A DNA stretch of 31,193 bases from a bacterium (GTDB lineage Bacteria; BMS3Abin14), in contig CP070698.1 in the NCBI GenBank assembly GCA_020349685.1, forward strand, positions 1,693,208-1,724,400, written 5' to 3'. A model generated the notes under the pieces. That model saw only the letters and a program-made list of their open reading frames with translations. It made no database searches and had not been told where the DNA came from. Below, in pieces: positions 2,364 to 30,475 of the stretch. Numbering within the stretch: the stretch's first letter is position 1; every line of letters starts with the position of its first letter. The translations under genes and the position numbers were made by a program.

Positions 2364-2374
2364 CGTATTTTCTC

Positions 2375-3186: not shown

Positions 3187-3196
3187 CTCTTCGCTC

Positions 3197-3643
3197 CTAA
3201 AGCCGATCGTAGCGGGGGTTATCCCCCTTTGTGAGCATCTGTTCCTTGGTGACCTTGAGTTTTCCGGGGTCCGTGATCGTCAACTCGAAATCCTGACCCA
3301 TGAAAACAGCATCCACAGGGCAAACTTCCTGGCAGTAACCGCAGTAGATGCAGAGCCCCAGATCGATGACGTAGCTGTTCACCACTTTCTCGTGATCCTC
3401 ACCTTCCGATGTCTCCATGGCGATGGCCCGGGAGGGACAGATCTCGGCGCAGAGCCCGCAACCCACGCAGCGTTCCTTGCCGTCCTCGTGACGCTTGAGG
3501 ATCTGTGCCCCCCGGAACCGCTCCGGGAGGTCGTAATAGACCTCCGGATACCTGAGGGTCACCGGCTTGGAAAAAAAGTAGCGGATCGTCAAGCTGAGGC
3601 CCTTGATCAGATCTGTCTGCAGGATGTTCGTCATCAAACCCAC
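3197..3643 (-). CDS. nuoI: NADH-quinone oxidoreductase subunit I, 2x[4Fe-4S] (148 aa)
   Basis: VTLRYPE, RFRG, CVGCGLCAEICP and CIYCGYCQEVCP. Confidence 0.96.
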   Translation of the reverse strand: MGLMTNILQTDLIKGLSLTIRYFFSKPVTLRYPEVYYDLPERFRGAQILKRHEDGKERCVGCGLCAEICPSRAIAMETSEGEDHEKVVNSYVIDLGLCIYCGYCQEVCPVDAVFMGQDFELTITDPGKLKVTKEQMLTKGDNPRYDRL

Positions 3644-3659
3644 TGTACTCTCCCGTTCC

Positions 3660-4700: not shown

Positions 4701-4723
4701 GGTTCTCCCCTGATCCTGAGCCC

Positions 4724-5722: not shown

Positions 5723-5723
5723 C

Positions 5724-8504: not shown

Positions 8505-8553
8505 CTGATTCCCTCTGCAAGCTCATCAGTTCATTAGAGAGTCCGGTCAGACC

Positions 8554-11500: not shown

Positions 11501-11634
11501 GTCTTCAGGATCGGCACATCGATGGACATCTTGCCCATCTGCTGCTCCACCTCCGCCAGTACGCCCCTTGCGCCGGACGCGAGGCCGCAGGTCCCCATTC
11601 CAATGACGATAAGTTTGTCGCTGTCGTTTCCCAT
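8554..11634 (-). CDS. HydB/NuoF-like flavoprotein fused to a GltD/NfnB/SfrB-like FAD/NADP(H) oxidoreductase domain (1026 aa)
   Basis: N-terminal thioredoxin-like Fe-S domain (GTCG..GCIGMC); NuoF core (GLRGRGGGGFP, CNADEGDPGAFMDR, GAGAFVCGEETAL, ESCGKCVPCR..SLCGLG); then PCQHVCP, CGRVCHHPCESKC, GGGPAG, GIPEYRLP, GGGNTAID, YRR, FAGGD. Confidence 0.92.
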   Translation of the reverse strand: MGNDSDKLIVIGMGTCGLASGARGVLAEVEQQMGKMSIDVPILKTGCIGMCYQEVLVDVSLPGMARVTYAKVEPEMIQQIIENHVIKGKPITDYAIGQITTNGEKIYKGIPTYDELDFFKKQNRIVLRRCGFIDPDKIEDYLDSDGYQAAEKALTTMSPTIVREVVKKSGLRGRGGGGFPTGLKWEFCANAAGDPKYLICNADEGDPGAFMDRSVLEGDPHAVIEGMVIAAYAIGAQYGYIYCRAEYPLAIERLKTAIGQAEERNYLGEKIFGTDFSFHLRIKEGAGAFVCGEETALMASIEGKRGMPRSRPPFPAHKGLYGQPSNINNVETFACVPPIILKGADRYAGIGTEGTKGTKVFALTGKINHTGLIEVPAGTQLKEIIYDIGGGIVGGGKFKAAQLGGPSGGCLPAEIVETPIDYDSLIQAGAMMGSGGVVIMDERTCMVDVARFFLNFTTAESCGKCVPCRMGTRTMLGILDRITSGHGNMEDLKNLEELGQEIKNTSLCGLGQTAANPVLSTIRYFRKEYEAHITEKRCPAVVCKKIISSPCQHVCPIETDVPAYVTLIGQGKYSEALELIRMTNPLPAVCGRVCHHPCESKCRRGDLDEPISIRTLKRVAADFAAKEEISGKYSIHVKKISGKGKRVAIVGGGPAGLTAAHYLGKSDFSPVIFEAQRIMGGMLTLGIPEYRLPRDTLQHEISAIEKMGAEFHLKTPIGVKVPFEQLRLDYEAIFIATGAHVDLKMGIPGEDAQGVYESLAFLRKINLGEKVPLGKKVAVVGGGNTAIDATRVSLRMGSEVTILYRRTRKEMPADDMEIEEALHEGANLELLVAPVKVLTKGGKLTGVQCIRMELGEPDSSGRRRPVPVEGSEFELELDNLIVAVSGQPDLSFLGEGHGLSISKWNSIDVHPFTQMTNVEGVFAGGDVVTGPWMVIDAIGAGKRAAAHMELYLNGEEVLPKYSVTIPNTEPVEAIELTEEDMHLVRPSMPTMELEKRLKDFAEVEFGYTKEMALKEARRCLRCDTEE

Positions 11635-11664
11635 CAGCTCCTGTATCCTCCTGAAGAGTGGTGC

Positions 11665-12210
11665 CTATTCTGCTCTCTTCATCGTGTCCATTTCTCGAAG
11701 GTTATCCATGATCCTCTCGGTCTTGACGGAGTCAAGCGTTCCGTGGGCATCGTTGTCGATCATGATGACGGGGGCCAGGCCGCAGGCGCCGAGGCAGGCC
11801 ACCTTTTCGAAGGAGGCGAACATGTCCTCGGTCGTTTCTCCATGGCCTATGCCGAGCATGTGCTCGAGCTTGCTGATCACCGTTTTCCCGCCCCTGACGT
11901 GACAGGCCGTCCCGCTACACGCCCGGATGATGTGCCTGCCGCGAGGGGTCAGATGGAACTGGGTATAGAAGGTCAGGACCCCGTAGACCTGGCTGCGGTA
12001 AAGCCGCATCCTGTCGGCCACAACGTTGGCCGCCTCCTCGGGCACGTAACCGTAGACCGTCTGGACATCCTGAAGGACGGGGATCAGCATCCCCTTTGTT
12101 TCCTTGAGGGAATCGATGATCCTGTGCACCGGAGCCAGGTCTATCTGCTCCTCCTCTTCCTCGATCCCGGCGTCCTGCTTGACATCCTCTAGAGTGACAT
12201 CGGCGCTCAC
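11665..12210 (-). CDS. nuoE: NuoE/HydC-like [2Fe-2S] subunit, copy 2 (about 181 aa)
   Basis: CSGTACHVRG and ACLGACGLAPV. Start placed at GTG 12210 (GGAGGT upstream, GTGA overlap with the upstream stop); the ORF track extends to 12222. Confidence 0.9.
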   Translation of the reverse strand: MSADVTLEDVKQDAGIEEEEEQIDLAPVHRIIDSLKETKGMLIPVLQDVQTVYGYVPEEAANVVADRMRLYRSQVYGVLTFYTQFHLTPRGRHIIRACSGTACHVRGGKTVISKLEHMLGIGHGETTEDMFASFEKVACLGACGLAPVIMIDNDAHGTLDSVKTERIMDNLREMDTMKRAE

Positions 12211-12674
12211 CGCCACCTCCACATGTAGTTCACCATATCGATATATCTTTCGTTCATACTCCGCAGCTGGTCGATCAGTTCCCCCACCAGGAGCTTCATA
12301 ATCTTCACGGCATCGGCGGGATACTTCTCGACGAACCTGTCGAAGTCGTTCTTGTCGAGAAGGTAGAGGGCACAGTCACCATGTGCCGAAGCGTTGGCCG
12401 AGTGGGTGCCCTCCGAGAGGAAGGTCATGATACCAGCGAACCCGCCCGCGTTCACCATGCCCAGGCTCTGGGCTTCCCCTTCCTTGGCCCTCTTGGTGAT
12501 CTTGACGACACCGCTCCCCACCAGATAGAGGTCGCCTCCCAGCGTGCCTTCGTTGAAAATGGACTCCTTGTCCTGATAGGTCCTCTTCTGCAGAGCGCCG
12601 GCCAGATATGAGAGCGCCTCCTCCGAGATTTCCTTGAGGGACTCTATCTCCTTGAGTTGGCTAATTTCGATCAT
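12207..12674 (-). CDS. Stand-alone cyclic-nucleotide-binding-fold (Crp N-terminal type) protein, no HTH (155 aa)
   Basis: IFNEG..LYLVGSGVVKI..LGMVNAGGFAG..HSANASA followed by a C-helix. ATG 12674 is preceded by GAGGAGG; the ORF track start at 12737 overlaps nuoG1. Confidence 0.85.
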   Translation of the reverse strand: MIEISQLKEIESLKEISEEALSYLAGALQKRTYQDKESIFNEGTLGGDLYLVGSGVVKITKRAKEGEAQSLGMVNAGGFAGIMTFLSEGTHSANASAHGDCALYLLDKNDFDRFVEKYPADAVKIMKLLVGELIDQLRSMNERYIDMVNYMWRWR

Positions 12675-12687
12675 TTGGTAATCCTCC

Positions 12688-15369
12688 TCAGGCTTTGACC
12701 ACACGCACGTGGACGATGGCCGTTCGTGCCTGGTCATCGGGACCTGGAATCATGAGGGCGCTCACGGGAGCGTTTTTAAAGTGGCGCGGCAAAAAGAGCA
12801 TCCCTGGGGCTATATCCTCGGAATAGCTGACAGTAACGGTAAATTCACCCTGGGTTGAGACGGCGCGGACCGAGCTTCCGTCCTGGACATCGAGACCCAT
12901 GCCCGTCTGGGGGTTCATCAAAAGGGTGGCCTGGGCAGCCAGCTGGTTCAAGGATTCCGAATACCTGGTAAAGCTGCCGGAATGGAAAAGCAGGTCTCCG
13001 AGCACCAGCGTCATGGGATATTTGGAATCGGCACTGTGCGTTTCCCAAACAGGCACAGCAGCGAAAAACTGCTTATCCTTGCTCAGGCCTTCCGGCAGAA
13101 GGTGCCTCGTACCCAGATATCCCTCGTGATAGACCTCCCGGGCGTCATCGCGGGAGAAAGGCCATTGAAGCCCGTTGTCGGCCAGGATCTGATGGTTGAT
13201 ACCGGAATAGAAGGGCACCACACTGGCTATCTCGTCCATTACCTCGGAGGAGTTCAGATAGTTCATCCCCTCTTCGCCGCAGGCGACACCAAGGTCGGAG
13301 AAGATCTTCCAATCGGGCAGGCTGTGTCCCAAGCCGTCGATGGCTTTGCTGGTTTTCTGGACGCGCCTTTCAACGTTGGTAAGCGTACCGTTCTTCTCTG
13401 CCAGGGAAGTGGCGGGAAGCACCACGTCGGCCAGTTTGGCGGTATCGGTCAGGAAGAGCTCCTGGACCACGAGGAACTCCATCTTCTTGAGCGCCTTTTC
13501 CAGGTCCTCCCCTCCCGGGAACGTTGCCAGAGGGTTGACGCCGGCGAGATAGAGGGCTTTCAGCTTCCCGGCCGCGGCGGCCTGGATCATCTCATAGGCA
13601 CTCTTCCCCCCGTCCTTGGGCACTTTGCCATTCCAGGCCTTCTCCACTCTCTTTCTTTCGGAATCAGAACTGACTGCGGCATGCCCGGGCAGCCAGTTGG
13701 GGGAAACGCCCATGTCCAGAGCGCCCTGGAAGTTGGTGCCTGACAGGATGGGGTAGAGACCGCATCCTTCCTGTCCCAGCTTTCCCGTGAGCACGAGCAG
13801 ATCGATGACCGCCTCCAGGACCTTCTCACCCCCGGCCTGCAGTACCGCTGTCTCGCCGAAGATGATGGAGGCCTTCTTGGCACCGGCGAACTCCCTGGCC
13901 GTCTGGGTGATCTCATCGACGCTGCAATCCGTTTCCCGTGCGATCTCCTTGAGGCTCTTGTCCCTGACGGAGAATTCGAGTTCGGAGAATTTGCCGTACT
14001 TCCCCAGGGTCTCGCTGTCGTAGAGCCCCTCCTCCAGGATCACCTTGATCAGCCCCTTCACCAGGGCGAGCTCTTTCCCCACCGGGACGGCGAGGGATCT
14101 CCGGGCCAATCTGGAAAGAGCTGTCTTTCCGGGGTTGACCTCCGTTACGAGCCCTCCCCGGCGGATAGCCTGTTTCACTTTCAGTCCGGAAATGGGGTTG
14201 GCCACGGTGATGTCGCAGCCGACAATGAGCAGGGCGTCGGTATAGTTGAGATCGTCCAGGGAGTTGGTGGCGGCCCGCACGCCCATCCGCTTTTCCAGGA
14301 CGGGAACGACCGTCCTGGACCAGAGGCCGGAGGGAGTATCCACGTTGTTGCTGGAAAAGACCATCCGCATGAGCTTCTGGAAAAGGTAGAGATCCTCGTT
14401 GGTGAGCCTGTCGGAAGCGATGCCGCCGACGGCTTTGCCACCGCTTTCCCGGGATATGCGCTTCATGTTCCTGGCAACCTCTTCCAGGGCGCTTTGCCAG
14501 GTCGTTCGTCTCAAGACACCATCGGCGTCCCGCACCATCGGGGCGGTGATCCTGTCAGGGTGATTGATGACGTCATAGCCGAAGAAGCCCTTGGAACAGA
14601 GGCTTCCCATGTTGAGCCCCCGCCCCTCGGCGTGCGTGACACGATACACGACGTTGTCGCGATAGTTGTAGCTGAGGGTGCAGCCGCAGCTGCAGTAGGG
14701 ACAGATAGCTTCCGATTTTTCCATCTCCCAGGTCCGGACCTTGTGTTTCATGGCCCTGGAAGTAATGGCACCAACGGGACAGGACCAGATGCAGTGGCTG
14801 CAGTATTCACAGTCCAGCGATTTGTCCATGAACGGGCCCACCACGGTGGCTGCGCCCCTGTAGGACATGCCCAGGGCGGTCACTCCCTGGATCTCTTCAC
14901 AGACCCTGACGCAGCGCTTGCACTGGATGCATCTGTTGAGGTTTCGATCGATGAGGGGGCTGATGATATGGTCCCTGAGAATCCTTTTTTTACCTTTGAA
15001 GCGCGTCTCCGCGCTGCCGTGCTTGAAAGCCAGGTCCTGGAGGGTGCACTCGCCGGAGGCATCGCATACCGTGCACTCCAGGGGATGGTTGATGAGAAGG
15101 AACTCCAGCATCATCCTCCGGGCCTTCTCGACCCTCGGCGTGTCGGTGCGGACCACCATCCCGTCGTTGACGGCGAGGGTGCAGGCGGTCTGCAGTTTCC
15201 CCATCCCTTCGACCTCCACGAGACACATCCGGCACGCCCCGAGATCACTCAGGCGCGCCTGGTGGCAGAAGGTGGGAATGTGGATCCCGAGCTTGCTGGC
15301 CGCATCGAGGACGTTGACGTGGCCGTCGACCATGATCTGCCTGCCATCTATTGTAAGCCGAACCATCAT
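12688..15369 (-). CDS. nuoG: NADH-quinone oxidoreductase subunit G, copy 1 (893 aa)
   Basis: FCHQ, GACRMC, TAC, HPLECTVCDASGEC, CIQCKRCVRVC, CEYCSHCIWSCPVGA, CPYCSCGC..LCSKG, followed by a degenerate molybdopterin-type fold; overlaps the nuoF1 stop. Confidence 0.92.
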   Translation of the reverse strand: MMVRLTIDGRQIMVDGHVNVLDAASKLGIHIPTFCHQARLSDLGACRMCLVEVEGMGKLQTACTLAVNDGMVVRTDTPRVEKARRMMLEFLLINHPLECTVCDASGECTLQDLAFKHGSAETRFKGKKRILRDHIISPLIDRNLNRCIQCKRCVRVCEEIQGVTALGMSYRGAATVVGPFMDKSLDCEYCSHCIWSCPVGAITSRAMKHKVRTWEMEKSEAICPYCSCGCTLSYNYRDNVVYRVTHAEGRGLNMGSLCSKGFFGYDVINHPDRITAPMVRDADGVLRRTTWQSALEEVARNMKRISRESGGKAVGGIASDRLTNEDLYLFQKLMRMVFSSNNVDTPSGLWSRTVVPVLEKRMGVRAATNSLDDLNYTDALLIVGCDITVANPISGLKVKQAIRRGGLVTEVNPGKTALSRLARRSLAVPVGKELALVKGLIKVILEEGLYDSETLGKYGKFSELEFSVRDKSLKEIARETDCSVDEITQTAREFAGAKKASIIFGETAVLQAGGEKVLEAVIDLLVLTGKLGQEGCGLYPILSGTNFQGALDMGVSPNWLPGHAAVSSDSERKRVEKAWNGKVPKDGGKSAYEMIQAAAAGKLKALYLAGVNPLATFPGGEDLEKALKKMEFLVVQELFLTDTAKLADVVLPATSLAEKNGTLTNVERRVQKTSKAIDGLGHSLPDWKIFSDLGVACGEEGMNYLNSSEVMDEIASVVPFYSGINHQILADNGLQWPFSRDDAREVYHEGYLGTRHLLPEGLSKDKQFFAAVPVWETHSADSKYPMTLVLGDLLFHSGSFTRYSESLNQLAAQATLLMNPQTGMGLDVQDGSSVRAVSTQGEFTVTVSYSEDIAPGMLFLPRHFKNAPVSALMIPGPDDQARTAIVHVRVVKA

Positions 15370-16652
15370 GATGCTGCCTCTGTTTCCGCCTCACCGGAAC
15401 CGCTGTTCCTCAAATAGGCAAGATATTCCCCCCGGAATTTCTTGATCGTACTCTCCACACAGCTGACGGACGCCTCGCCCAGGCCGCAGAAGGATGTGGA
15501 CCGGATCCCTTCGCATATCTCCAGGAGGAGATCCAGATCCTGCTCGCTGGCGCTGCCTTCGAGGATCTGGTCGAGGATCCTGCGCACCCAGAACAGACCC
15601 TCCCGGCAGGGCGTGCATTTACCGCACGATTCGTGCTCGAAAAACTTGATGAGCACGTGGGTGGCCTTGACCATATCGGCCGTGTCATCCAGTACGATGA
15701 CAGCCCCCGAACCCAGCATGCTCCCGGCTACGGCCAGGGAGTTGAAATCCAGCTTGACGTCCAGCTGGGACTCGTCGAGGCAGGCCGACGAGGCCCCCCC
15801 GGGGAAGGCCGCCTTGAAGGTTCTTCCTTCTCTCATGCCTCCCGCGTTATCGAAGATAAGCTCCCGCAGGGTCACCCCCATGGGAAGCTCGTAGACACCG
15901 GGGCGGGCCACATGTCCGCTCACGGAATAGAGCTTGGTTCCCGGGCATTCGGGAGTGCCGATGGAGGCGTACCAGGCGCCGCCCCTGAGGATGATGGGGG
16001 GCACCGATGCCAGGGTCTCGACGTTGTTGACGACGGTGGGAAGGTTGCTGTAGCCCACATTCACCGGGAAGGGAGGGCGGATCCTCGACTGTCCCCTTTT
16101 TCCCTCGAGAGATTCGATAAGGGCCGTTTCCTCACCGCAGACGTAAGCCCCGGCACCGCGGTGTACCGTTACGGAGAAGTTGAAACCGGAGTTGAGGATG
16201 TTGTCGCCAAGGAAGGAACGGCTCGTGGCTTCCGCGATGGCCCTTTCCAGGATCCTGGCGCCCTGGGGGTACTCTCCCCGGATGTAGATAAAGCCCTTTT
16301 CGGCGCCTGCGGCGTAACCGGCCAGCGCCATCCCCTCCAGGATGGCATGGGGGTCGTTCTCGATGAGCACCCGGTCCTTGAAGGTACCCGGCTCCCCCTC
16401 ATCGGCGTTGCAAATTATGTATTTGGGCTTCCTGCGGTCCCGGGAGGCGAAATCCCATTTCATCCCGGCTGGGAACCCGGCTCCTCCCCGCCCCCTCAAC
16501 CGTGCGATCTTGACCTCGTCGATAACTTCTTCGGGGGTCATCTCATTGAGGGCACGCGGCAGGGCCACATACCCCTCGTTGACCAGGTACGAGTCGATAT
16601 GGGCCGGGTTGGGCCTGCTTACGTTTCGTGTAAGGATCTTCAGTTCGCTCAC
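15366..16652 (-). CDS. nuoF: NADH-quinone oxidoreductase subunit F, copy 1 (428 aa)
   Basis: LRGRGGAGFPAG, CNADEGEPGTFKDR, GAGAYVCGEETAL, ESCGKCTPCREG..SFCGLG; canonical length with no extra domains. Confidence 0.96.
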   Translation of the reverse strand: MSELKILTRNVSRPNPAHIDSYLVNEGYVALPRALNEMTPEEVIDEVKIARLRGRGGAGFPAGMKWDFASRDRRKPKYIICNADEGEPGTFKDRVLIENDPHAILEGMALAGYAAGAEKGFIYIRGEYPQGARILERAIAEATSRSFLGDNILNSGFNFSVTVHRGAGAYVCGEETALIESLEGKRGQSRIRPPFPVNVGYSNLPTVVNNVETLASVPPIILRGGAWYASIGTPECPGTKLYSVSGHVARPGVYELPMGVTLRELIFDNAGGMREGRTFKAAFPGGASSACLDESQLDVKLDFNSLAVAGSMLGSGAVIVLDDTADMVKATHVLIKFFEHESCGKCTPCREGLFWVRRILDQILEGSASEQDLDLLLEICEGIRSTSFCGLGEASVSCVESTIKKFRGEYLAYLRNSGSGEAETEAAS

Positions 16653-17140
16653 GGCTTCTCTCGGTATGAGTTAAGGATCCGGCTGACCGAATCCACCGTT
16701 ACGCTCCGGTGCAGGTCGCCGTCGATCATCATGGCCGGGGCATGATCGCAGGCGCCGATGCACTCCACTTCCACGAGAGTGAAGACACGGTCAGGGGTCG
16801 TGGCGCCGACGTCGATGCCGAGCTCTCTTTTGAGCCCCTGAAGGACCTCCTCGGCCCCGTTGACGTGGCAGCTGAGGTTGCGGCAAACCTGAACCAGGTG
16901 CCTGCCGACCGGCTCCGTGAAAAGCATGGTGTAGTAGGTCGCGACCTCGAAGGTCCGGACGTGGGGCACCCCGATGAATTCTGCCACAAAGGTCAGGGCC
17001 TGTTCGGAAAGGTGTCCCTGCGCCCCCTGCACGTAATGCAGCAGAGGAAGGATAGCTGAGGCAGGTTCCTGGTAGCGGGCCCGAATGTTCTCCATGTCAG
17101 AGAACTCCTTGGCGCTGAAGACCTCCGTGCTTTTCATCAT
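16649..17140 (-). CDS. nuoE: NADH-quinone oxidoreductase subunit E, copy 1 (163 aa)
   Basis: VCRNLSC and ECIGACDHAP; 4-bp overlaps with nuoD and nuoF1. Confidence 0.95.
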   Translation of the reverse strand: MMKSTEVFSAKEFSDMENIRARYQEPASAILPLLHYVQGAQGHLSEQALTFVAEFIGVPHVRTFEVATYYTMLFTEPVGRHLVQVCRNLSCHVNGAEEVLQGLKRELGIDVGATTPDRVFTLVEVECIGACDHAPAMMIDGDLHRSVTVDSVSRILNSYREKP

Positions 17141-18309
17141 CGGTCGATCTCCCCCAGCACGATGTCCAGGCTTCCGATAATGGCGACGACGTCCGCCAGC
17201 ATGTTCCCCTTTGCCATCGTCAGCAGGGACTGAAGGTTAATGAATGACGGGGGGCGGATCCGGAGCCTGTACGGTTTGGGGCTGCCATCGCTCACGATGT
17301 AGAATCCGATCTCGCCCTTGGGGGCCTCGATGGTGGAATAAACCTCGCCCCTGGGGGGAGCCAGACCCTCTACCACAAGCTTGAAATGGTGGATCATGGC
17401 TTCTATGGAACCCTCCAGGCGCTCCTTGTCAGGCATGACGAACTTGGCCGAGCGCTCGATGAAGGGACCTTCGGGCATGCCCTCGATGAGCTGCCGCAGC
17501 ATCCTGGAGCTCTGACGCATCTCCCTGATCCTCACCATGTACCGGGCGTAGACGTCGCCTTCCTCAAGAACGGGGACCATGAAATCGAGTTCCCCGTAAA
17601 CCTCGTAGGGTTCGTCCCTCCTGATATCCCAGTCCACCCCGGACGCCCTCAAGGCCGGGCCTGAGAGACCGAGGCTCAGGGCGTCCTCCCGGCTGATGAA
17701 ACCGACATTCTTCGTGCGCCTGAGCCAGATGCGGTTCTTGCTCAGAAGCCTCTCGTATTCGTTGATCTTGACGTCGAACTTGTCCAGGAAGGTTTTGATC
17801 TTGCCGGTGAAACCGGGGGTCATGTCCCTGACCACCCCGCCAGGGCGGAAATAGGTGGGCATCATCCGGGTGCCGGCGATCTCCTCGATGAGGTCCAGGA
17901 TGTCCTCCCGTTCCCTCAGGCCGTACATCAGGACGGTGACGGCACCGATATCAGCCGCGTGGGTTCCGAGCCAAAGGAGATGGCTCATGATCCTGGTCAG
18001 CTCGGCAATGGTGGTCCTTATGTACTGAGCCCTTCTGGGAACCTCGATGCCCAGGAGCTTTTCCACCGCCAGGATGTAGGCCAGGTTGTTGCTCCCGGAG
18101 GCGAGGTAGTCCAATCTGTCCGTAAGGGGAAGGACCTGCAGATATTTTTTGCTCTCGGAAAGCTTCTCGACGCCCCTGTGCAGATAACCGATATCCGGCA
18201 CCGCATTGACGACCACCTCACCGTCCAGCTCCAGAATGATCCGGAGAACCCCGTGTGTGGAGGGGTGGTGGGGACCCATGTTGATTGTCATGATCTCCTG
18301 CCTGGCCAC
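17137..18309 (-). CDS. nuoD: NADH-quinone oxidoreductase subunit D (390 aa)
   Basis: NMGPHHPSTHGVLR, GYLHRGVEK, RLDY, EAPKGE, terminal GSLDIVLGEIDR; no NiFe CxxC motifs. Confidence 0.97.
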   Translation of the reverse strand: MARQEIMTINMGPHHPSTHGVLRIILELDGEVVVNAVPDIGYLHRGVEKLSESKKYLQVLPLTDRLDYLASGSNNLAYILAVEKLLGIEVPRRAQYIRTTIAELTRIMSHLLWLGTHAADIGAVTVLMYGLREREDILDLIEEIAGTRMMPTYFRPGGVVRDMTPGFTGKIKTFLDKFDVKINEYERLLSKNRIWLRRTKNVGFISREDALSLGLSGPALRASGVDWDIRRDEPYEVYGELDFMVPVLEEGDVYARYMVRIREMRQSSRMLRQLIEGMPEGPFIERSAKFVMPDKERLEGSIEAMIHHFKLVVEGLAPPRGEVYSTIEAPKGEIGFYIVSDGSPKPYRLRIRPPSFINLQSLLTMAKGNMLADVVAIIGSLDIVLGEIDR

Positions 18310-18320
18310 CTTGACCTCCC

Positions 18321-18830
18321 TTACCAGCGCACCCTTCCCCTGAGGGGGAACTCCTTGCGGAGCGGGTAGCCGTCAAATTGTTCAGGGTTCAGGATCCTTC
18401 TCGGATCCGGATGACCTTTGAACTGGATCCCGAACATGTCGTAGACTTCCCTTTCGAGCCAGTCGGCGGTCATCCAGATCCCGCTGGCCGTCTCCATCTC
18501 CTTTCCCTCCTCCAACTGGACCTTGAGACGGAAGCGGAGGTTCTTGGAGATGGAATAGAGCTGGAAGACGACTTCGAACTCAGCTCCCTTGCGCCCCGGC
18601 CAGTGGACGGCTGTCAGGTCAGAGAGGAACTCCAGATCAAGTTCCGGGTCGCCTTTCAGGGACCGCAGGATCTCCAGGGCTCTTTCAGGTTGCACCGTGA
18701 CCCAGACCTGGCCGCAGGAAGAGCCCACTTCGACTATGGCAGAGGCGAAATCGCGCCTGATGGCGCCGACGGCCGGATGTTTTTCCGGCTCCCCTCCTGT
18801 AAATCCCTGGCGGTTCAGATTTACCGTCAA
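18321..18830 (-). CDS. nuoC: NADH-quinone oxidoreductase subunit C (about 169 aa)
   Basis: [41 protein letters not shown]. Start placed at TTG 18830 (TTGA overlap with the nuoB stop, GGAGGGAG upstream) rather than 18965. Confidence 0.93.
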
Positions 18831-19381
18831 ACTATCTCCCTCCTGCCGGGGCCAGTGAAGCCCGGCTTGATCTTCCTGGGATTGGCTGAAAAGTTCACCT
18901 GCCCGTCGATCTTCATCTGCAAGGTCATGATCCCGTGGATCAGGGCTTCCGGCCTGGGAGGGCACCCGGGAACGTAAACGTCAACCGGGAGAATGTAGTT
19001 GACACCCGGTACCACGCTGTAGGTCTGAAAGATCCCGCCGCAGGTGGCGCAGCTTCCCATGGCCAGAACCCATTTCGGTTCGGCCATCTGGTCATAGAGT
19101 TTCTTGACCACGGGGGCCATCTTGTTGGTGACCGTTCCGGCCACGATCATGAGGTCCGCCTGCCTCGGCGAAGCTCTGAAAACCTCCCACCCGAAACGCG
19201 CCATGTCGTACCTGGCAGCTGCGGCCGAGATCATCTCGATAGCGCAGCAGGCCAGCCCGAAGGTGAGCGGCCACAGGGAGGACCTCTGAGCCCAGTTAAT
19301 GACCGTACTGGCCGAGGTAAGGAGGATATTGGCTTCTTTGGGGCCGGGCCCCTTGTACACTCGTGTGGGTTTCTTCCTCAT
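18827..19381 (-). CDS. nuoB: NADH-quinone oxidoreductase subunit B (184 aa)
   Basis: [32 protein letters not shown] (N2 cluster ligands). Confidence 0.97.
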
Positions 19382-19764
19382 CGCCAGCTCAACGCACCCT
19401 TTCTCCAGATATAGACGTATCCGAGCAACAGGATCACTATGAAGATGACCATCTCGATGAAACCGAAGATGACCGGATCGAACTTTTCAAACAGTATGGC
19501 CCACGGGTACATGAACACCACCTCGATGTCGAAAACGATGAAAAGCATGGCCACGAGGTAAAAGCGGATATCGAAGCGCTGGCGGGCATCCTTGATGGGG
19601 ATCATGCCGCATTCGTAGGTTGAGGATTTTTCATCGGTGGGATAGTGGCGTCCCGCCACGTAGCCGAATATCTGGGAAGCGATCAGCATGACCGCTCCGA
19701 GAAAAAAGATGCAGAGAAGAAAGATAAAGATGGGCAGATACCCTAAGATTAGGTTTTCACCCAC
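19378..19764 (-). CDS. nuoA: NADH-quinone oxidoreductase subunit A (about 128 aa)
   Basis: [34 protein letters not shown]. Start placed at GTG 19764, 6 nt after GAGGGAGGG. Confidence 0.95.
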
Positions 19765-19841
19765 GATAAGCCCTCCCTCGGAAAAGCTGCTCGGACCGGC
19801 ACAAAACGACACCATGCGGCGCCTTGAGTGCGGCTCATGAC

Positions 19842-19858
19842 AATTGGTCAAACCACAA
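19842..19858. promoter_or_regulatory. Candidate FadR/PdhR/LldR-type (GntR family) operator
   Basis: AATTGGTCAAACCACAA with a TGGT-N3-ACCA palindromic core, compared with AATTGGT-N3-ACCAATT; about 80 bp upstream of nuoA. Confidence 0.4.
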
Positions 19859-25475: not shown

Positions 25476-25485
25476 CAACTTGTTC

Positions 25486-25514
25486 CCCGCGGCGGTGCCA
25501 GGCGCCGCCGCGGG
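25486..25514. terminator. GC-rich hairpin after the cytochrome b gene (no U-tract; terminator or mRNA-stabilising stem)
   Basis: CCCGCGGCGG (25486-95) pairs perfectly with CCGCCGCGGG (25505-14). Confidence 0.5.
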
Positions 25515-25558
25515 ATCACCTCAGGCGTTCTGTCTGCCCCCTTAAATCGGCACATTCA

Positions 25559-25588
25559 TTGACACTGAAAAGAAGGGTGTGCTAAAAA
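25559..25588 (+). promoter_or_regulatory. Putative sigma70 promoter of the Rieske/cytochrome b ... rex unit
   Basis: TTGACA-N18-TAAAAA with extended TG; a TTCACAA Rex half-site lies at 25608-25614. Confidence 0.6.
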
Positions 25589-25636
25589 TCTCAAATGACG
25601 GTTGTTGTTCACAAGCTCTGCCGGGGGTGACCAGCA

Positions 25637-26080
25637 TTGCCTTCCTCCCACAAAAGCGCATACCGCGGTACCGACTACCTCCTCGGCATCCTGGTTCTTC
25701 TCGCGGCAGGCCTTCTGCTGATCTGGACCGCCCGCTACCTGCAGCCTGTACGACTGCCCCCTCTGTCACCTGGTTCCTATCACTTCATAGCCAGGCTTGA
25801 CGACGTGGCTCCCGGCAGCTCCCTCTCTTTCATGCTGGAGGGCCGACCCTGGCTTCTTGCAAGGAGGGAGAGTGAAATCATGGCGGTCTCGGGCCTCTGC
25901 ACTTTTCGCGGCTCGAAGATCCTCTGGGATGAGGACAACCAGGTTTTCCTTTGCGAGGGCCACGGCTGTACCTTCGGATATCGCGGTCACCGCATTCAGG
26001 GCCTTGCGGCAGATCCCCTCGAAACACTGAGGATCAAGATCGTGGGTGAGCGCATTTACGGTGCAAGGCGGCGATCATGA
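25637..26080 (+). CDS. Rieske-fold protein with degenerate cluster motifs (147 aa)
   Basis: N-terminal TM helix + YLQP hinge, then AVSGLCTFRGSKILW...FLCEGHGCTFGYRG..G...PL, which has Rieske spacing. TTG start after GGGGGTG; ATGA overlap with the cytochrome b gene. Confidence 0.82.
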   Translation: MPSSHKSAYRGTDYLLGILVLLAAGLLLIWTARYLQPVRLPPLSPGSYHFIARLDDVAPGSSLSFMLEGRPWLLARRESEIMAVSGLCTFRGSKILWDEDNQVFLCEGHGCTFGYRGHRIQGLAADPLETLRIKIVGERIYGARRRS

Positions 26081-26787
26081 GCAGCAGGGAACGCTCCCAT
26101 CACAAAGGCTCTTCCAGAAGCACCCGGGACCTGTTCGGCCTCCGCGGGTTCCTGTTTGGGTCGGCAGACAGCAGGGCCTCGATGAAGGGAGCCTGGGAAG
26201 CAACCCTCAGAAGACCCGTGGCCCACAGCGGCTGGTCCTCCTGCTTCGGCGGCATCGCCCTCTTTCTTTTTCTCATCCAGGCCGCCACCGGCATCCTCCT
26301 CATGTTCTTTTACATACCGGCCGATCCGGAAGCCTACCGCTCGACGCTCTACATGGCCGGGCAGGCGCCCTTCGGATGGTTTTTCAGGATCATCCACCAC
26401 TGGGCAGGCATAGCCATGATGTTCGCGGTTTCCCTTCACGTCCTGAGGGTGCTCTTCAAGGGCGCTTACCAGGACCCAAGGGACCTGAACTGGATCGTGG
26501 GTTCGGTTCTGTTCTTCCTGACCGCGGGCTTCGTCCTGACCGGTGACCTTCTGCCCTGGACACGATCGGCCTACTGGTCCGCCGAATGGTGGACCAGTCT
26601 GGTGGGAAGCTTCCCCCTCATAGGTCACCAGATCATGCTGTTCCTGCGCGGAGGCGAGAACGTCACCGGATCCACAGTGACAAGGTTCTACGTTTTCCAC
26701 GTCTTCGTGCTTCCGGCCCTTTCCACGCTTTTCATGGTCCTTCATTTTGCCATGGTCAGGAAACTGGGCATTTCGGAGCCGCTGTGA
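26077..26787 (+). CDS. petB: Cytochrome b6-like subunit (4-TM N-terminal half of a split cytochrome b) (236 aa)
   Basis: CFGG, QAATGILLMFFY, RIIHHW..LHVLRV, RFYVFHVFVLP..LHFAMVRKLGISEPL; all four b-heme His present. Confidence 0.9.
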   Translation: MSSRERSHHKGSSRSTRDLFGLRGFLFGSADSRASMKGAWEATLRRPVAHSGWSSCFGGIALFLFLIQAATGILLMFFYIPADPEAYRSTLYMAGQAPFGWFFRIIHHWAGIAMMFAVSLHVLRVLFKGAYQDPRDLNWIVGSVLFFLTAGFVLTGDLLPWTRSAYWSAEWWTSLVGSFPLIGHQIMLFLRGGENVTGSTVTRFYVFHVFVLPALSTLFMVLHFAMVRKLGISEPL

Positions 26788-27209
26788 GAACGTACAAAGG
26801 CAGAAAGAGGCAAACCAGGGGATCGGTCCGGAGGGAGTATCCCTTCTATCCCAACCAGCTCCTCAGGATCCTTATGGCGATCATGGGGACCCTGGCTGCG
26901 GTGGCTGTGCTTTCGGCTCTTTTTCCCCTGTCCCTCGACCTTATCGCCGACCCCTTTGCCAGGCCCGAAGCCGGGACCCGGGCGCTCTGGATCCTGAAAC
27001 CGGTCATCCTGCTCGGCGGCATGCTAAAAAGGCCGGGTCTCACCATAGTCCTTGTTACTTTCCTGGCAGCCCTTTTCGTCCTTCTTCCCGCGCTGGACAG
27101 GTCAGGACAGCGCACCCTGAAACGCAGGCTGCTGATGGCCACCCCGTTCCTGCTCTGGGTCCTCTTTCTGGCTGTCTCGCTGCTGTTTTCGGTGGGAGTT
27201 CCGGGATGA
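26784..27209 (+). CDS. petD: Subunit IV-like (C-terminal half of a split cytochrome b), PEWY motif absent (141 aa)
   Basis: PFYPN, TM helix, ADP..P, TM helix ending LPALDRS, RR, third TM. GTG 26784 overlaps the petB stop, with GGAG upstream. Confidence 0.8.
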   Translation: MRTYKGRKRQTRGSVRREYPFYPNQLLRILMAIMGTLAAVAVLSALFPLSLDLIADPFARPEAGTRALWILKPVILLGGMLKRPGLTIVLVTFLAALFVLLPALDRSGQRTLKRRLLMATPFLLWVLFLAVSLLFSVGVPG

Positions 27210-28468
27210 GGGTCTGCCTGGTCGCAGCGGCCTTTCTACTGATATTCGCACCGGGCGTCCAGGGCATGACGGCCTCCTCCTGTGTTTCCTGCCACGGCGC
27301 CCTCGACCAGAGAAACTCCGAACCGGTCAGGCTCTGGGAAACAGACCTCCACATGGAGTCCGGGCTCGGGTGTCACGATTGTCACGGCGGCGATCCGGGC
27401 AGCATTGATTCGGCCATGTCCCCTTCCAGCGGTTTTAAAACAGCCCCCTCCGGAAGGGAGTCTGTTCAGCTGTGCGGGGGATGTCATTCCCAAGCCGACC
27501 GCATTCCCGACCCCACCACCGCCACGGATCAGATGCACCAGTACCTATCAGGCTCCCACGGCAGGTCCAGCCGAAGCGACAGCCCCACCTGTGTCACCTG
27601 CCACGGCAGCCACGGCATCACCCGTGTCTCGGCCCCTTCCTCACCGGTGTTTCCGACCCGTGTGGTCTCCCTTTGCATCGGCTGCCATGGAGAGGAGACC
27701 GCTTCCGGCCAACCATCACCGGCACTCTACCTTGACGATGTGCATGGGCGCACCCTGTCTGCCGCTGCAAACCCTCGTTCGCCGGCCTGTCCCGATTGCC
27801 ACGGGAGCCACCGCGCCGCAGTGCCCGATACCAGGGGCGCCGTGATGATCTGCGGGAATTGTCACACGATGGAGTACGCCTATTTTCAGGACGGACCCCA
27901 TGGAGATTCCCTGGCCAGGACAGGAGAGCCGTCCTGCATACACTGTCACGGTTATCACGGGATCGTAGCAACGGGGATCGATGAGATCATCGGTCAGATC
28001 GCCGACAACTGCCAGGGGTGCCACCAGGCCGGCAACACCGCCTGGGAGACGGGACGGAAGATCGATGAAGGCCTTGGGGTCGCCATGAGCTTTCTCAGTG
28101 GCCTGGTCAGCAAGTCTGAGGATTTCAGGGCTTCCGGTGTGGACACCGCTGAAATGGACAGGCTGTACAGAGAGGCCCGCGTCCAGCTCCTGCAGGTCGA
28201 ATCGGCCATCCACTCCGTTGACAGCCAATGGGAAGAGTTGACAGGAATGGCTAAAGTGAAGATGATGGCATCCTGGGACCTTGCGAGGGACTACAACCTG
28301 GAGAAAGGGATACGAAGGGTCGTTCTGCTGCTCATGGCCCTTCTGGCCGCCGCCATTCTCGCCCTGCTTTTTTATAAACTCAAGCTCGTCGAAAAGGATC
28401 AGCAAAGGAGGCACCTGCTGGGCAGCCCGGAGGCAATGCAGAGGGAACAGGAGTATCGCCGCAAATGA
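27206..28468 (+). CDS. Membrane-anchored 9-heme cytochrome c (420 aa)
   Basis: ATG 27206 (ATGA overlap, GGGAG upstream), signal peptide, 9 CxxCH (CVSCH, CHDCH, CGGCH, CVTCH, CIGCH, CPDCH, CGNCH, CIHCH, CQGCH), helical stalk and C-terminal TM helix. Confidence 0.9.
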   Translation: MRVCLVAAAFLLIFAPGVQGMTASSCVSCHGALDQRNSEPVRLWETDLHMESGLGCHDCHGGDPGSIDSAMSPSSGFKTAPSGRESVQLCGGCHSQADRIPDPTTATDQMHQYLSGSHGRSSRSDSPTCVTCHGSHGITRVSAPSSPVFPTRVVSLCIGCHGEETASGQPSPALYLDDVHGRTLSAAANPRSPACPDCHGSHRAAVPDTRGAVMICGNCHTMEYAYFQDGPHGDSLARTGEPSCIHCHGYHGIVATGIDEIIGQIADNCQGCHQAGNTAWETGRKIDEGLGVAMSFLSGLVSKSEDFRASGVDTAEMDRLYREARVQLLQVESAIHSVDSQWEELTGMAKVKMMASWDLARDYNLEKGIRRVVLLLMALLAAAILALLFYKLKLVEKDQQRRHLLGSPEAMQREQEYRRK

Positions 28469-29826
28469 AGGCCGCGGGTAAATACTTTTCCCTGATTCGT
28501 AGATTGCGGTTCTACGAGATCCTGCTCCTTGCATGCATAGCTATCGTGCTCGGTGCCTGGAGCGTCAAGGAGATAACCGAATCCGCCCTTTTCTGCGGAA
28601 GCAGCTGCCACGTCATGCGACCGTATTACGAGGACTGGAAGACCTCGGCCCACAGTACCGTGCGGTGCGTCGACTGCCATCTCGAACCTTCGGACGAACA
28701 GCAGTTCGTGCCCCAGTTCAAGGCTGTCAGCCAGGTCGCCAGCTACCTGACGCGTACCTACGGCGAACACAGAAGGGCCGAGGTAAGCGACGCCAATTGC
28801 CTGAGGGAAGGCTGTCATTCCAGGAGGCTCCTGGACGGTAAAGTCACCTTTTCAGGGACCATCCGTTTCGACCACACACCCCACCTCCAGCAGCTCAGGA
28901 GAGGCAAGATCCTCAGATGCACAACCTGTCATTCCCGCGTCGCCATGGGCGAGCATGTAACAGTGGTTCTGGACCCCTGTTTCCTGTGTCATTTCAAGAA
29001 CAGGGAAAAGGGTACGGCCACGATGGAGTGCCTGCTGTGTCACAGCACAGGAGGCGAGGATACCACAACACCGGGGGGCGTCTTCGATCATCGCACCATG
29101 AGACAGAGGGGTGTTCCCTGTACCAGCTGCCACCAGTCCGTCACCAGGGGCAACGGAGAGCTGAGGGCCGCATCGTGCCAGGAGTGCCACGGGCAGCCCA
29201 TGGAGGAAGCTCTTGGTGAACCTGTCGAACTGCTTCACCGGGTCCACGTCACCGACCACAAGGTTGAATGCACGCTCTGCCATGAGCCGATACAGCATTT
29301 CATACCGGATGAGGCTTCCCCTGAAGCCCTCTCCCTTTATTGCAGCTCCTGCCACGAGGGTAAACACAAGGGCATCCTGGACATGTTCCGGGGGACAGGG
29401 GCCAGGGGGGTGGCTTCTTCGCCATCGCCGATGCACAAGGCCCACGTGGGCTGCAACGGCTGCCACATCGTGACGGATCCGGATGCTGGAACACGGGCGT
29501 CCTTTGCGGGCATGAACATGATCGCCGTCAAGGAGGCCTGCCGGGCGTGTCATCCTGCAGGTTATGCTCAAAAGGTCGTTCAATGGGAACGGGACATTTC
29601 CTCGGCCCTTCAGGCCGCAGAAAGGAAACTGAGGACTGCGGGCGAAAAACCGGGCGACGGACCAGAGGGCGACCCCCGCTCTCGCCGCATCCTCGAAAAC
29701 ACCCGGTACAACATCCTCTTTGTCAAGAACAGCGCCCCCATACACAACAGGGACTATGCCGTTCAGATCCTGGAAAAAGCTGCCCAGGACCTGTCAGGCC
29801 TTATCGAACAACCAGAACAGAGGTGA
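28465..29826 (+). CDS. NapC/NirT-like membrane-anchored multiheme cytochrome c, 10 canonical + 2 atypical heme motifs (453 aa)
   Basis: N-terminal TM, TESALFCGSSCHVMRPYYEDWKTSAH..CVDCH (NapC/NirT-type start); 10 CxxCH plus CGSSCH and CLREGCH. Confidence 0.88.
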   Translation: MKAAGKYFSLIRRLRFYEILLLACIAIVLGAWSVKEITESALFCGSSCHVMRPYYEDWKTSAHSTVRCVDCHLEPSDEQQFVPQFKAVSQVASYLTRTYGEHRRAEVSDANCLREGCHSRRLLDGKVTFSGTIRFDHTPHLQQLRRGKILRCTTCHSRVAMGEHVTVVLDPCFLCHFKNREKGTATMECLLCHSTGGEDTTTPGGVFDHRTMRQRGVPCTSCHQSVTRGNGELRAASCQECHGQPMEEALGEPVELLHRVHVTDHKVECTLCHEPIQHFIPDEASPEALSLYCSSCHEGKHKGILDMFRGTGARGVASSPSPMHKAHVGCNGCHIVTDPDAGTRASFAGMNMIAVKEACRACHPAGYAQKVVQWERDISSALQAAERKLRTAGEKPGDGPEGDPRSRRILENTRYNILFVKNSAPIHNRDYAVQILEKAAQDLSGLIEQPEQR

Positions 29827-29830
29827 GAAA

Positions 29831-30475
29831 ATGGCTTTCAAAAAAGTAAGTCGCATCAAAATACCGGATGCTACGATCAGACGCCTGTCCCTTTATGACC
29901 GATGCCTGGAAGGCTTTCTCAAGTCGGGGAAAAAGGTCGTTTCGTCTTCCGACATCGCGAGGAAGTGCGGCACCAATCCGGCCCAGATACGAAAGGACTT
30001 CGCCTACTTCGGCGAGTTCGGCGTACGGGGAGTGGGGTATTACGTGGAAAACCTTCAGGGCGACATCAAGAGGGCTCTGGGAATCGACCGCTCGTGGAAC
30101 TGCGCCCTTGTAGGAGCCGGCAACCTGGGGTTTGCTCTCCTCGGCACCGACTCCCTTGCCAAGCGCGGTTTCAAGATCTCGGCCATCTTCGAGCGCGACC
30201 CCATCCTCGTGGAGATGGGGAGTTTCCAGGGCATCCCCCTCTACCCCATGGAAGAGATGGTGCGCGTCATCCCCGAACTGGGAATACAGATCGGCATCAT
30301 AGCCGTTTCTCCGGATAGCGCCATCAAGGTCGCCCTCAAGCTGACAGACGCCGGTGTGAGAGGCATCCTTAACTTCACACCCACCACCATCAAGGTCCCC
30401 CCCGGGATCATCCTGAAAAATGTCGACTTCGCCATCGACCTGGAGGGGATCGCGTTTCAGCTTAACAACGAATAG
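29831..30475 (+). CDS. rex: Redox-sensing transcriptional repressor Rex (214 aa)
   Basis: IPDATIRRLSLY, QIRKDFAYFGEFGVRGVGY, VGAGNLG, GILNFTP; ATG 29831 after GAGGTGA. Confidence 0.96.
   Translation: MAFKKVSRIKIPDATIRRLSLYDRCLEGFLKSGKKVVSSSDIARKCGTNPAQIRKDFAYFGEFGVRGVGYYVENLQGDIKRALGIDRSWNCALVGAGNLGFALLGTDSLAKRGFKISAIFERDPILVEMGSFQGIPLYPMEEMVRVIPELGIQIGIIAVSPDSAIKVALKLTDAGVRGILNFTPTTIKVPPGIILKNVDFAIDLEGIAFQLNNE

Follow-up and report, generated by a model that had tools for sequence, protein, structure and literature searches.

We analyzed a stretch of 31,193 nucleotides (the window; positions 1,693,208 to 1,724,400 of contig CP070698.1, GenBank assembly GCA_020349685.1) from the genome of an uncultured sediment bacterium, and found in it an operon of the b6-type Rieske/cytochrome b kind whose Rieske subunit keeps the Rieske fold without the ligands of a 2Fe-2S cluster. 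The source genome, a single contig of 2.03 Mb, is designated G000 here, and other G-numbers denote comparison genomes. In the reading that we prefer, to which we assign a probability of about one half, four genes of the window (Rieske-like, cytochrome b6-like, subunit IV-like and 9-heme cytochrome; the module or cassette in what follows) would encode a four-subunit membrane complex that derives from a b6-type Rieske/cytochrome b complex and offers a transmembrane heme path without electron bifurcation. Together with the gene of a NapC-like cytochrome they form a run of five intact open frames on the plus strand (25637-29826), joined by four successive 4-bp start/stop overlaps that read, in order along the operon, ATGA, GTGA, ATGA and ATGA; an earlier reading of the bare sequence (the original prediction) had described the same five overlapping genes without frameshifts.

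Loss of Cluster Ligands from the Rieske-like Protein

The first gene product is a member of the Rieske family by profile (Pfam PF00355 Rieske, 29 bits against a cut-off of 20.3), and public sources label it 'Rieske 2Fe-2S domain-containing protein'. When it is aligned with HMMER to solved Rieske proteins, box I reads C88-T-F90-R-G-S93 (CTFRGS) where those proteins show CTHLGC, and box II reads C106-E-G108-H109-G-C111 (CEGHGC) where they show CPCHG(A/S). The first histidine ligand and both disulfide cysteines are missing from the window copy, and the second histidine (H109) is still there. An N-terminal membrane helix is present, with no twin-arginine motif.

The loss of the Rieske histidine and disulfide, which the original prediction had claimed for this one sequence, extends across the clade. 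All of the Rieske-like copies in the genomes are non-canonical (8/8), as are those on metagenome contigs of the f1 type, our term for cytochrome b/Rieske-like loci of the same clade as the window operon, wherever the Rieske-like gene is readable (16/16; a 17th contig holds only the last 47 residues, at its edge). The same applies to 31/31 protein clusters (63-100% identity, all 147 amino acids long). The boxes read CSEGSG/CPSHGG in G003 and CSETGG/CPSNGG in G011, the latter with histidine at neither ligand position, and histidine is also absent from both positions in the more distant members P0009-P0011. A profile search of 1.84 billion representatives gave best matches that belong to the same Rieske-like family. 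Across 21 sequences the only invariant cysteine or histidine residues are C88 and C106, both former cluster cysteines. With only these two ligands invariant a 2Fe-2S cluster cannot be held, and the protein would appear to be cluster-free; C88 and C106 may form a disulfide. A replacement site of three cysteines and one histidine, built through C111, was considered and rejected. In other members the C111 position is taken by Ser, Gly or Glu and the H109 position by Asn, Ser or Gly, and the lack of conservation of C111 argues against such a site.

Canonical Rieske proteins are exported folded, by way of twin-arginine translocation (Tat). A twin-arginine motif stands before the membrane helix in 75 of the 79 canonical Rieske open reading frames (ORFs) that lie beside a cytochrome b gene, compared with 0/7 f1 loci and 0/31 protein clusters, and TatC is present in G000. 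The missing Tat signal would lend independent support to the loss of the cluster.

The fold itself is predicted with confidence. The AlphaFold2 model of the Rieske-like protein, an N-terminal helix followed by a Rieske domain, has a mean predicted local distance difference test score (pLDDT) of 87, with ten-residue block means of 93-96 in the soluble domain. The best Foldseek match is the Chlorobaculum Rieske domain (template modeling score 0.79, root mean square deviation 1.8 Å), the top matches are Rieske domains with a probability of 1.00, and a Kuenenia Rieske domain (9rk4) is also among the best structural matches.

A different kind of variant was seen among the 150 best Rieske-like representatives, where Tyr or Phe replaces the first cluster histidine in P0020, P0032, P0059, P0078, P0094, P0096 and P0117. 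These recurrent, unrelated-looking proteins of 125-270 amino acids retain CPCH and the disulfide cysteines.

Cytochrome b6-like Subunit and Subunit IV

The cytochrome b6-like subunit aligns to solved b6 without a gap (E 5.7e-49), so that its b-heme ligands H107, H121, H208 and H223 are equivalent to b6 His86, His100, His187 and His202; C56, in a CFGG form of the CxGG motif for heme ci, is equivalent to Cys35, and R228 to Arg207. Retention of the four b-heme histidines and the heme ci cysteine had been noted originally, and it holds beyond the window. The four histidines are invariant in 8 genomes and present in all f1-type rows that cover those columns (24-25 rows), C56-F-G-G is invariant in the 8 genomes, and the ci cysteine and Arg207 are found in 23/25 and 22/24 f1-type rows, respectively. 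Tyr replaces the heme ci cysteine (SYFGG) in L122 and L124, metagenome contigs of one f1-type sub-lineage, where the attachment of heme ci may have been lost too.

At the quinol oxidation (Qo) site the picture is different from that in other loci. D157 stands at the position of b6 Tyr136, and PWDQ reads PWTR. Tyr occupies the Tyr136 column in 5/25 f1-type rows, the others having D, N, H or S, compared with 144/145 other cytochrome b loci. The subunit IV-like protein, which aligns to solved subunit IV chains (E 3.8e-06), scores 26.3 bits against a cut-off of 127 for the NCBIfam family cytb6_f_IV (TIGR01156) and had no match in the Pfam scan; its PEWY motif is A67-L68-W69-I70 (ALWI). The fourth PEWY position is Tyr or Phe in 1/23 f1-type sequences (Tyr 0/23, Phe 1/23) versus 136/137 at other loci. 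Within the clade the PEWY tryptophan is retained, a W-x-x-[KR]-P motif is conserved, and the cytoplasm-side PFYP-R motif is invariant. As a separate three-helix protein beside a four-helix b6, subunit IV gives the operon the split arrangement of the b6f type.

The changes that the original prediction listed in the Rieske ligands, cytochrome b Tyr136 and PEWY are upheld; its statement that every Qo-forming element is altered, and its inclusion of the cd1 helix, were too strong. We defined outgroup-conserved cytochrome b positions as those conserved at >= 80% in 79 outgroup sequences. In the f1 clade 7/49 of these are replaced, 6/34 on the periplasm side and 1/15 on the cytoplasm side, numbers that are too few for a comparison of the two sides, and several of the replacements are ordinary b6-type residues, the outgroup being mostly the APWY clade.

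Distribution, Selection, and Expression

The phylum of G000 is represented in the collection by 16 species genomes, all of one family. Candidate phylum MBNT15 was considered as a possible identity for it; passages of PMC9386147 consulted on this point contain no reference to a Rieske or cytochrome b cluster. A Rieske-like gene with a matching cytochrome b gene is present in 8/16, and the module is absent from 8/16. Wherever the contig reaches, the order cbcA, cbcB, Rieske-like, cytochrome b, subunit IV, 9-heme, NapC-like, rex is retained (masking hides the downstream part in G004), and all six metagenome contigs that span cbcA to rex have the same eight-gene order. A scan of one genome per species gave 80 cytochrome b loci, comprising 5 of the f1 type, all non-canonical, 72 with a canonical Rieske protein, one whose frame is split, on a contig of low coverage, and two truncated at the end of a contig. 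The metagenome scan gave 17 f1-type contigs, with cytochrome b 57-92% identical, and 53 other loci, which are canonical. Among the loci scanned, of which about 130 outside the clade have canonical Rieske motifs, the cluster-less state appears to be unique to this clade. Two split genes, the Rieske gene of L061 (a low-coverage contig) and the cytochrome b gene of L134 (a 1.2-kb contig), are probably assembly errors.

In a quick tree the f1-type cytochrome b sequences form one clade of 22 rows with a Shimodaira-Hasegawa-like approximate likelihood ratio test value of 100. Because they are monophyletic, the co-occurring defects reflect one event and are not countable as repeated co-variation. Of the two signals that the original prediction had proposed to look for in homologous operons, co-variation of the three defects is present only in the sense that they share a clade of one origin, and the ratio of nonsynonymous to synonymous substitution rates (dN/dS) is below 1. 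For the unsaturated pair G001-G002 (dS 0.14-0.26) dN/dS is 0.31 for the Rieske-like gene, 0.24 for cytochrome b, 0.26 for subunit IV, 0.26 for the 9-heme cytochrome and 0.14 for the NapC-like gene, compared with 0.10, 0.12 and 0.09 for the neighbors CbcA, CbcB and Rex.

These data bear directly on whether the operon is a functionless, dying remnant of a canonical complex. The faster evolution of the genes for the Rieske-like protein, subunit IV and the 9-heme cytochrome in comparison with CbcA, CbcB and Rex (0.26-0.31 vs 0.09-0.12), and the lack of the module in half of the species, would suit such decay, which we nevertheless regard as very improbable. The frames are intact in 8 genomes and on 16/17 metagenome contigs (the exception being L134), dN/dS stays far under 1, the heme motifs do not vary, conservation extends to the overlaps, the ribosome-binding site and the promoter, and the same altered state has been kept to either side of the clade's deepest split. 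The clade-wide nature of the changes, the purifying selection, the confident Rieske fold and the conserved promoter agree with the original view that the complex has been repurposed and is not decaying.

Near-identical DNA is present in 19 sediment or estuary runs from 8 studies, with no indels in the three runs that were compared with the window. In one RNA library (X20) the 9-heme gene is matched by a contig of 241 bases with 1 mismatch and cbcB by one of 158 bases with 0 mismatches, with DNA carry-over possible; the other three RNA pieces in this library are short conserved parts.

The same gene order of Rieske, cytochrome b, 9-heme and NapC-like is found in G039, the one genome in the collection from another orphan phylum, with a canonical Rieske protein, Glu at the Tyr136 position and ISWY for PEWY. 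A metagenome protein, P0039, is 48% identical to this canonical Rieske protein (L038:4796-5260) and has Arg and Asp in place of both histidines, with the RR pair and the disulfide cysteines kept. It gives a hint that the cluster was lost a second time, independently, and likewise that the multiheme-linked architecture sheds the cluster repeatedly.

The 9-heme and NapC-like Cytochromes

The 9-heme cytochrome has nine CXXCH motifs, invariant in 16 sequences, a signal peptide and a C-terminal membrane anchor. Its AlphaFold2 model is poor (pLDDT 62.9, predicted template modeling score 0.35) and places long helices at the C terminus with low confidence; a comparison with PDB sequences gave no match. 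By its place in the operon this protein would correspond to cytochrome f/c1. In the NapC-like protein there are 12 heme motifs, 10 CXXCH with one CX3CH and one CX4CH, and none of the 12 varies among 9 sequences; the heme counts first proposed (nine, and 10-12 for the NapC-like protein) hold good.

The first 100 of the 453 residues of the NapC-like protein align to Desulfovibrio NrfH (2j7a chain C), and the score against the NrfH equivalog model is 45.8 bits with a cut-off of 134.2. Heme 1 is bound by the CX3CH motif followed by a methionine of the NrfH type (C44-C48-H49-x-M51), and C48, H49, M51, C68, C71 and H72 are invariant in the 9 sequences. The position of NrfH Lys82 holds Lys or Arg in 6/7 clade sequences, Ser in one, and Gln in the outgroup G039; that of Asp89 is Ser. 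The roles of these two NrfH residues are taken from the NrfH literature. From these features the NapC-like protein is a plausible separate periplasm-side quinol site. Further along, residues 227-443 match a solved protein of 526 residues that is named 'uncharacterized protein' (6i5b, E 2.1e-06), and the match takes in a conserved HN-x-DYA helix.

The NapC-like cytochrome had been put forward as a dedicated substitute subunit of the complex. This part of the prediction does not hold, as the gene adjoins cbcB and rex behind the same promoter in 4/5 module-less relatives. Its presence without the module in those 4/5 examined sister genomes raises the alternative that the Rieske-like protein, cytochrome b and subunit IV are only a membrane scaffold for the 9-heme cytochrome, while the NapC-like protein (with CbcBA) does the quinol chemistry and the b hemes lie off the main path. 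Such an arrangement would suit the NrfH-type helix, CH-x-M heme 1 motif and usual Lys or Arg at the Lys82 position in the NapC-like protein, as well as the probable loss of the module at least twice. It would leave the clade-wide retention, under purifying selection, of the b-heme histidines, CxGG, Arg207 and the cytoplasm-side motif of subunit IV hard to explain, since the hemes would be idle, and we judge it quite unlikely.

Genome Context

No second cytochrome b or Rieske gene was found in G000; the search for a second, canonical complex, which had been raised with the original prediction, leaves this genome with one cytochrome b and one Rieske gene. Second Rieske/cytochrome b sets were observed in three comparison genomes of the same family, G003 (L034, C1:2563000-2574000), G010 (C135) and G011 (C166), with a fused APWY-type cytochrome b of 470-477 amino acids. 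The set in G003 has a canonical Rieske protein (CTHLGC/CPCHAS) and a 760-residue cytochrome that carries, besides 7 CXXCH, a single heme motif of longer spacing. These same three genomes carry the most eroded Rieske-like copy, yet their b6-like cytochrome b keeps Tyr136.

G000 encodes complex I, ATP synthase, two NrfD-type genes and NiFe hydrogenases, as well as 29 ORFs with >= 3 CXXCH, one of which (C1:158900-161428, 843 amino acids) has 31 CXXCH. A heme-copper oxidase, a bd oxidase, NrfA and a sulfite/nitrite reductase of the NIR_SIR type were not found in this genome, which is 82% marker-complete with 34,231 masked bases. On the side of quinone synthesis, MqnA of the futalosine route was not found in G000 and MenB was found below cut-off only, though complex I and several quinone-type modules are present. 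From this inventory the organism looks like an anaerobe that exchanges electrons with low-potential partners outside the cell. A quinone (Q) cycle requires a high-potential acceptor; as none was found in G000, loss of the Rieske center fits this setting.

Proposed Electron Path and Alternatives

The conserved stack of hemes bL, bH and ci, Arg207, the PFYP-R motif and the anchored 9-heme cytochrome suggest a transmembrane heme path. We infer that the four genes at 25637-28468 encode a complex in which a four-helix cytochrome b, carrying hemes bL, bH and ci, would be joined by subunit IV and the Rieske-fold subunit, and in which the 9-heme cytochrome, anchored in the membrane, would replace cytochrome f. 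The Rieske 2Fe-2S center would have been given up, leaving the Rieske-fold subunit, probably exported unfolded, as a cofactor-less periplasmic scaffold. With no cluster, no PEWY glutamate and mostly no Tyr136, bifurcating quinol oxidation at Qo, and hence a Q cycle, would be impossible. The original proposal that no canonical bifurcating Qo reaction takes place is supported by the lost cluster ligands, by the members that have no histidine at either position and by the lost Tat signal.

Electrons would pass between a cytoplasm-side quinone site at heme ci/bH and a periplasmic multiheme network by way of heme bL and the 9-heme cytochrome. Were the flow outward, quinol would be oxidized on the cytoplasmic side and the membrane potential would drive electrons to low-potential acceptors outside. 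Were it inward, the path would be a half loop that generates proton motive force, like formate dehydrogenase-N, in which inward electron flow generates the potential. The 'transmembrane wire' of the original prediction appears to be the best reading of the gene set. The pumping redox loop that was proposed with it, from periplasm-side quinol to cytoplasm-side quinone, fails on thermodynamic reasoning, because a closed loop on one quinone pool lacks a driving force, and an outside donor or acceptor is needed. The more far-reaching proposition, that a Rieske/cytochrome b complex has been turned into a non-bifurcating, membrane-potential-coupled wire across the whole lineage, with the Rieske protein as a cluster-free, Sec-exported scaffold that is perhaps stapled by a disulfide, we hold tentatively and at somewhat less than even odds.

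Several observations weigh against a non-bifurcating heme path. The window copy of the Rieske-like protein retains C88, C106, H109 and C111, of which C111 and H109 are not conserved, and there may be a different metal site in its sub-group. Tyr136 is retained in three genomes (G003, G010 and G011). On the periplasm side, 28/34 outgroup-conserved cytochrome b positions are kept in the f1 clade and the cd loop is invariant within it (P160, W161, W167, W172, T173, G177, P180, G183), a strong conservation that would also fit a working, modified quinol pocket. The module, probably lost at least twice within the family, would be dispensable. The evidence for expression is thin, being one 241-base near-identical contig from one RNA library possibly with DNA, and the absences from G000, given its completeness and masking, are provisional.

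The retained tyrosines and the periplasm-side conservation, cd loop included, also count for a modified Q cycle, in which a periplasm-side pocket oxidizes quinol, a c heme of the 9-heme (or NapC-like) cytochrome replaces the Rieske cluster as first acceptor, and bifurcation and proton translocation persist. To these may be added the PEWY tryptophan and the new conserved W-x-x-[KR]-P motif, and the account of Kao and Hunte (2014) of partly active PEWY-glutamate mutants and of natural APWY and PAWY variants. Against it, both usual hydrogen-bond partners of quinol, the Rieske histidine and the PEWY glutamate, are gone together, and no high-potential acceptor chain was found in G000. A fixed heme, moreover, cannot mimic the moving Rieske head that gates bifurcation in the bc1 complex. 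We consider a modified Q cycle unlikely.

Cytochrome bc complexes conserve energy by virtue of the Rieske cluster and the Qo site, and in reviews the Rieske/cytochrome b pair serves to define the family. If it functions as a non-bifurcating heme path, the complex would be a natural experiment in which a cytochrome b core with heme ci functions without a Q cycle, possibly an intermediate or derived state that links bc complexes and simple di-heme membrane anchors, and a candidate new coupling mode for low-potential extracellular electron transfer. A strict anaerobe could then spend or harvest membrane potential in exchanging electrons with low-potential partners outside. As the proteins are publicly named 'Rieske 2Fe-2S', metabolic reconstructions would wrongly credit such organisms with a complex III.

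Gene Neighborhood, Promoter, and History of the Module

The features of the region are collected in Table 1.

Table 1. Genes and sequence elements between cbcA and rex in the window
Feature	Position	Strand	Basis and remarks
CbcA-like multiheme cytochrome c, 382 amino acids, 11 CXXCH, C-terminal membrane helix	23443..24591	+	Pfam cytochrome c3/c7 families; orthologues 57-86% identical
CbcB-like b-type membrane cytochrome, 295 amino acids	24588..25475	+	Weak family matches; 4-bp overlap (TTGA) with cbcA
G+C-rich hairpin	25484..25516	+	Directly past the cbcB stop codon; RNAalifold, 6 genomes
Promoter: TTGACA (25559-25564) and GTGTGCTAAAAAT (25577-25589)	25559..25589	+	Conservation in 7 genomes
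Operator-like element TTGTTGTTCACAAGC, TTCACAA invariant	25602..25616	+	Cross-genome conservation
Rieske-fold protein without cluster ligands, 147 amino acids, TTG start	25637..26080	+	Pfam Rieske, alignments, AlphaFold2/Foldseek
Cytochrome b6-like subunit, 236 amino acids	26077..26787	+	Pfam Cytochrome_B, 143 bits; alignment to solved b6
Subunit IV-like protein, 141 amino acids, GTG start	26784..27209	+	Alignment to solved subunit IV chains
9-heme cytochrome c, 420 amino acids	27206..28468	+	Nine CXXCH; signal peptide; C-terminal membrane anchor
NapC/NrfH-like 12-heme cytochrome, 453 amino acids, N-terminal membrane helix	28465..29826	+	Pfam PF03264 Cytochrom_NNT, 45.6 bits (cut-off 24.1)
Rex redox-sensing repressor, in every case the final gene of the cluster	29831..30475	+	NCBIfam NF003993, 249 bits (cut-off 217); synteny

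The family matches of the CbcB-like protein are Ni_hydr_CYTB at 20.3 bits (below the cut-off of 30.1) and a weak one to the formate dehydrogenase gamma subunit. Upstream of cbcA and cbcB are the ATP synthase genes for subunits I, a and c and, on the minus strand at 429-19851, an operon for complex I. The latter contains two successive NuoE/NuoF/NuoG-like sets, and one NuoF-like gene (8554-11634, 1026 amino acids) forms a fusion with a pyridine nucleotide-disulfide oxidoreductase and with a 4Fe-4S domain of the dihydropyrimidine dehydrogenase type. It also includes genes for a cyclic nucleotide monophosphate-binding protein (12207-12737) and a tetratricopeptide repeat protein (4724-5722).

The hairpin past cbcB has 14 pairs and a computed energy of -28 kcal/mol, with compensatory changes at 4 pairs, and is not clearly followed by a T-run. 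Between cbcBA and the next operon it may serve as a terminator or attenuator, or as a stem that stabilizes mRNA. In the promoter that follows, TTGACA does not vary among 7 genomes, nor does most of the second block. The second block, GTGTGCTAAAAAT, resembles an extended -10 element, and the promoter and the operator-like element TTGTTGTTCACAAGC are conserved across genera, although a generic promoter and terminator scan of the window did not flag this promoter. The invariant TTCACAA matches one half of the Rex box; a search of the window with the full Rex consensus gave no site at <= 3 mismatches.

The CbcB-like gene is present in 15/16 genomes of the phylum, and in 4/5 of the module-less genomes examined the order is cbcA, cbcB, NapC-like, rex. 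In these relatives the gap before the NapC-like gene (L201-L203 and L205) carries the same series of elements, TTGACA ... TGTGCTAA ... TTCACAA; TTGACA is exact in all four, and the second block matches exactly in two of them and as a close variant in the other two. Because the NapC-like gene stands behind the same promoter without the module, the five-gene unit of the window is a four-gene cassette plus one resident gene. The cassette would sit between the conserved promoter and the resident NapC-like gene and be co-transcribed with it, and the NapC-like protein would also work without the module in sister species. On a quick, unrooted tree of CbcA plus CbcB (11/16 genomes) the distribution of the module needs at least two gains or losses. 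As the module tree shares its deep split with the CbcA plus CbcB tree, we read the module as ancestral and twice lost.

Comparison with Known Systems

The closest frame of reference is the b6f-type complex. Shared with it are the gapless four-helix b6 with its four histidines, CxGG cysteine and Arg207, the three-helix subunit IV, the N-terminal helix of the Rieske-fold subunit and a c-type cytochrome anchored at its C terminus. In contrast to b6f-type complexes, the window complex lacks the cluster ligands, the Tat signal and PEWY, Tyr136 is mostly replaced within its clade, and nine hemes stand in place of the single heme of cytochrome f. The NapC-like protein resembles NrfH, NapC and CymA in its membrane helix, in heme 1 with its methionine, in heme 2 and in the Lys at the NrfH Lys82 position, and differs from them in having 12 hemes rather than 4, a CX3CH first motif and Ser at the Asp89 position; the genome in which it occurs yielded no NrfA. 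With FdnI, the hydrogenase cytochrome b and CbcBA the likeness would be one of mechanism, a b-heme stack between periplasmic centers and a cytoplasm-side quinone site, with no homology of these proteins to cytochrome b6. The upstream pair of the window is likened to Geobacter CbcBA by architecture and weak family matches alone. CbcBA is described in the Joshi preprint as a low-potential, low-yield route, for which outward, potential-driven flow is proposed, of use with acceptors that lie below the potential of the quinone.

Two of the systems compared combine a Rieske/cytochrome b pair with multiheme cytochromes. In the Cbc6/ExtMNOPQS cluster of the metal-respiring anaerobe Geobacter sulfurreducens (GSU2930-2935), a Rieske protein (ExtO), a cytochrome b (ExtP) and a membrane protein (ExtQ) lie beside 10- and 12-heme cytochromes, according to PMC5877670, PMC2825233 and the Joshi preprint. 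ExtP (NCBIfam NF040969) is the best NCBIfam model for the window cytochrome b, yet at 200 bits against a cut-off of 290 it does no better than generic b6; the gene order is different, and no other window subunit matched an Ext-named family in the NCBIfam scan. The role of this cluster is given as still unknown in a 2026 review. In the anammox complexes (Kuenenia kuste4569-4574 and kustd1480-1485), a b6-like cytochrome b and subunit IV are accompanied by hexa- or octaheme cytochromes in place of cytochrome f, and a non-standard use has been proposed for these Rieske/cytochrome b complexes (PMC12954380). Anammox Rieske domains are among the best matches of the window protein, 9rk3 and 9rk4 by sequence and 9rk4 by fold. 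Unlike the window protein they bind 2Fe-2S, as their crystal structures show, and the anammox complexes have NAD(P) oxidoreductase subunits, of which the window system has none.

Variation at the level of single motifs has been described before. Kao and Hunte describe PEWY variants such as APWY, PAWY and PDWY, as well as a branch that has no Rieske gene, and Dibrova et al. (2017) describe the CxGG motif and odd small cytochrome b forms. A full-text literature search, within the text accessible to it, found no paper in which a conserved Rieske subunit without its cluster is part of a cytochrome b operon; supplementary tables could list such sequences. Complexes of the b6-type Rieske/cytochrome b kind with multiheme cytochromes are thus already known, and what the window operon adds to them is a conserved cluster-less Rieske subunit that is kept in such an operon.

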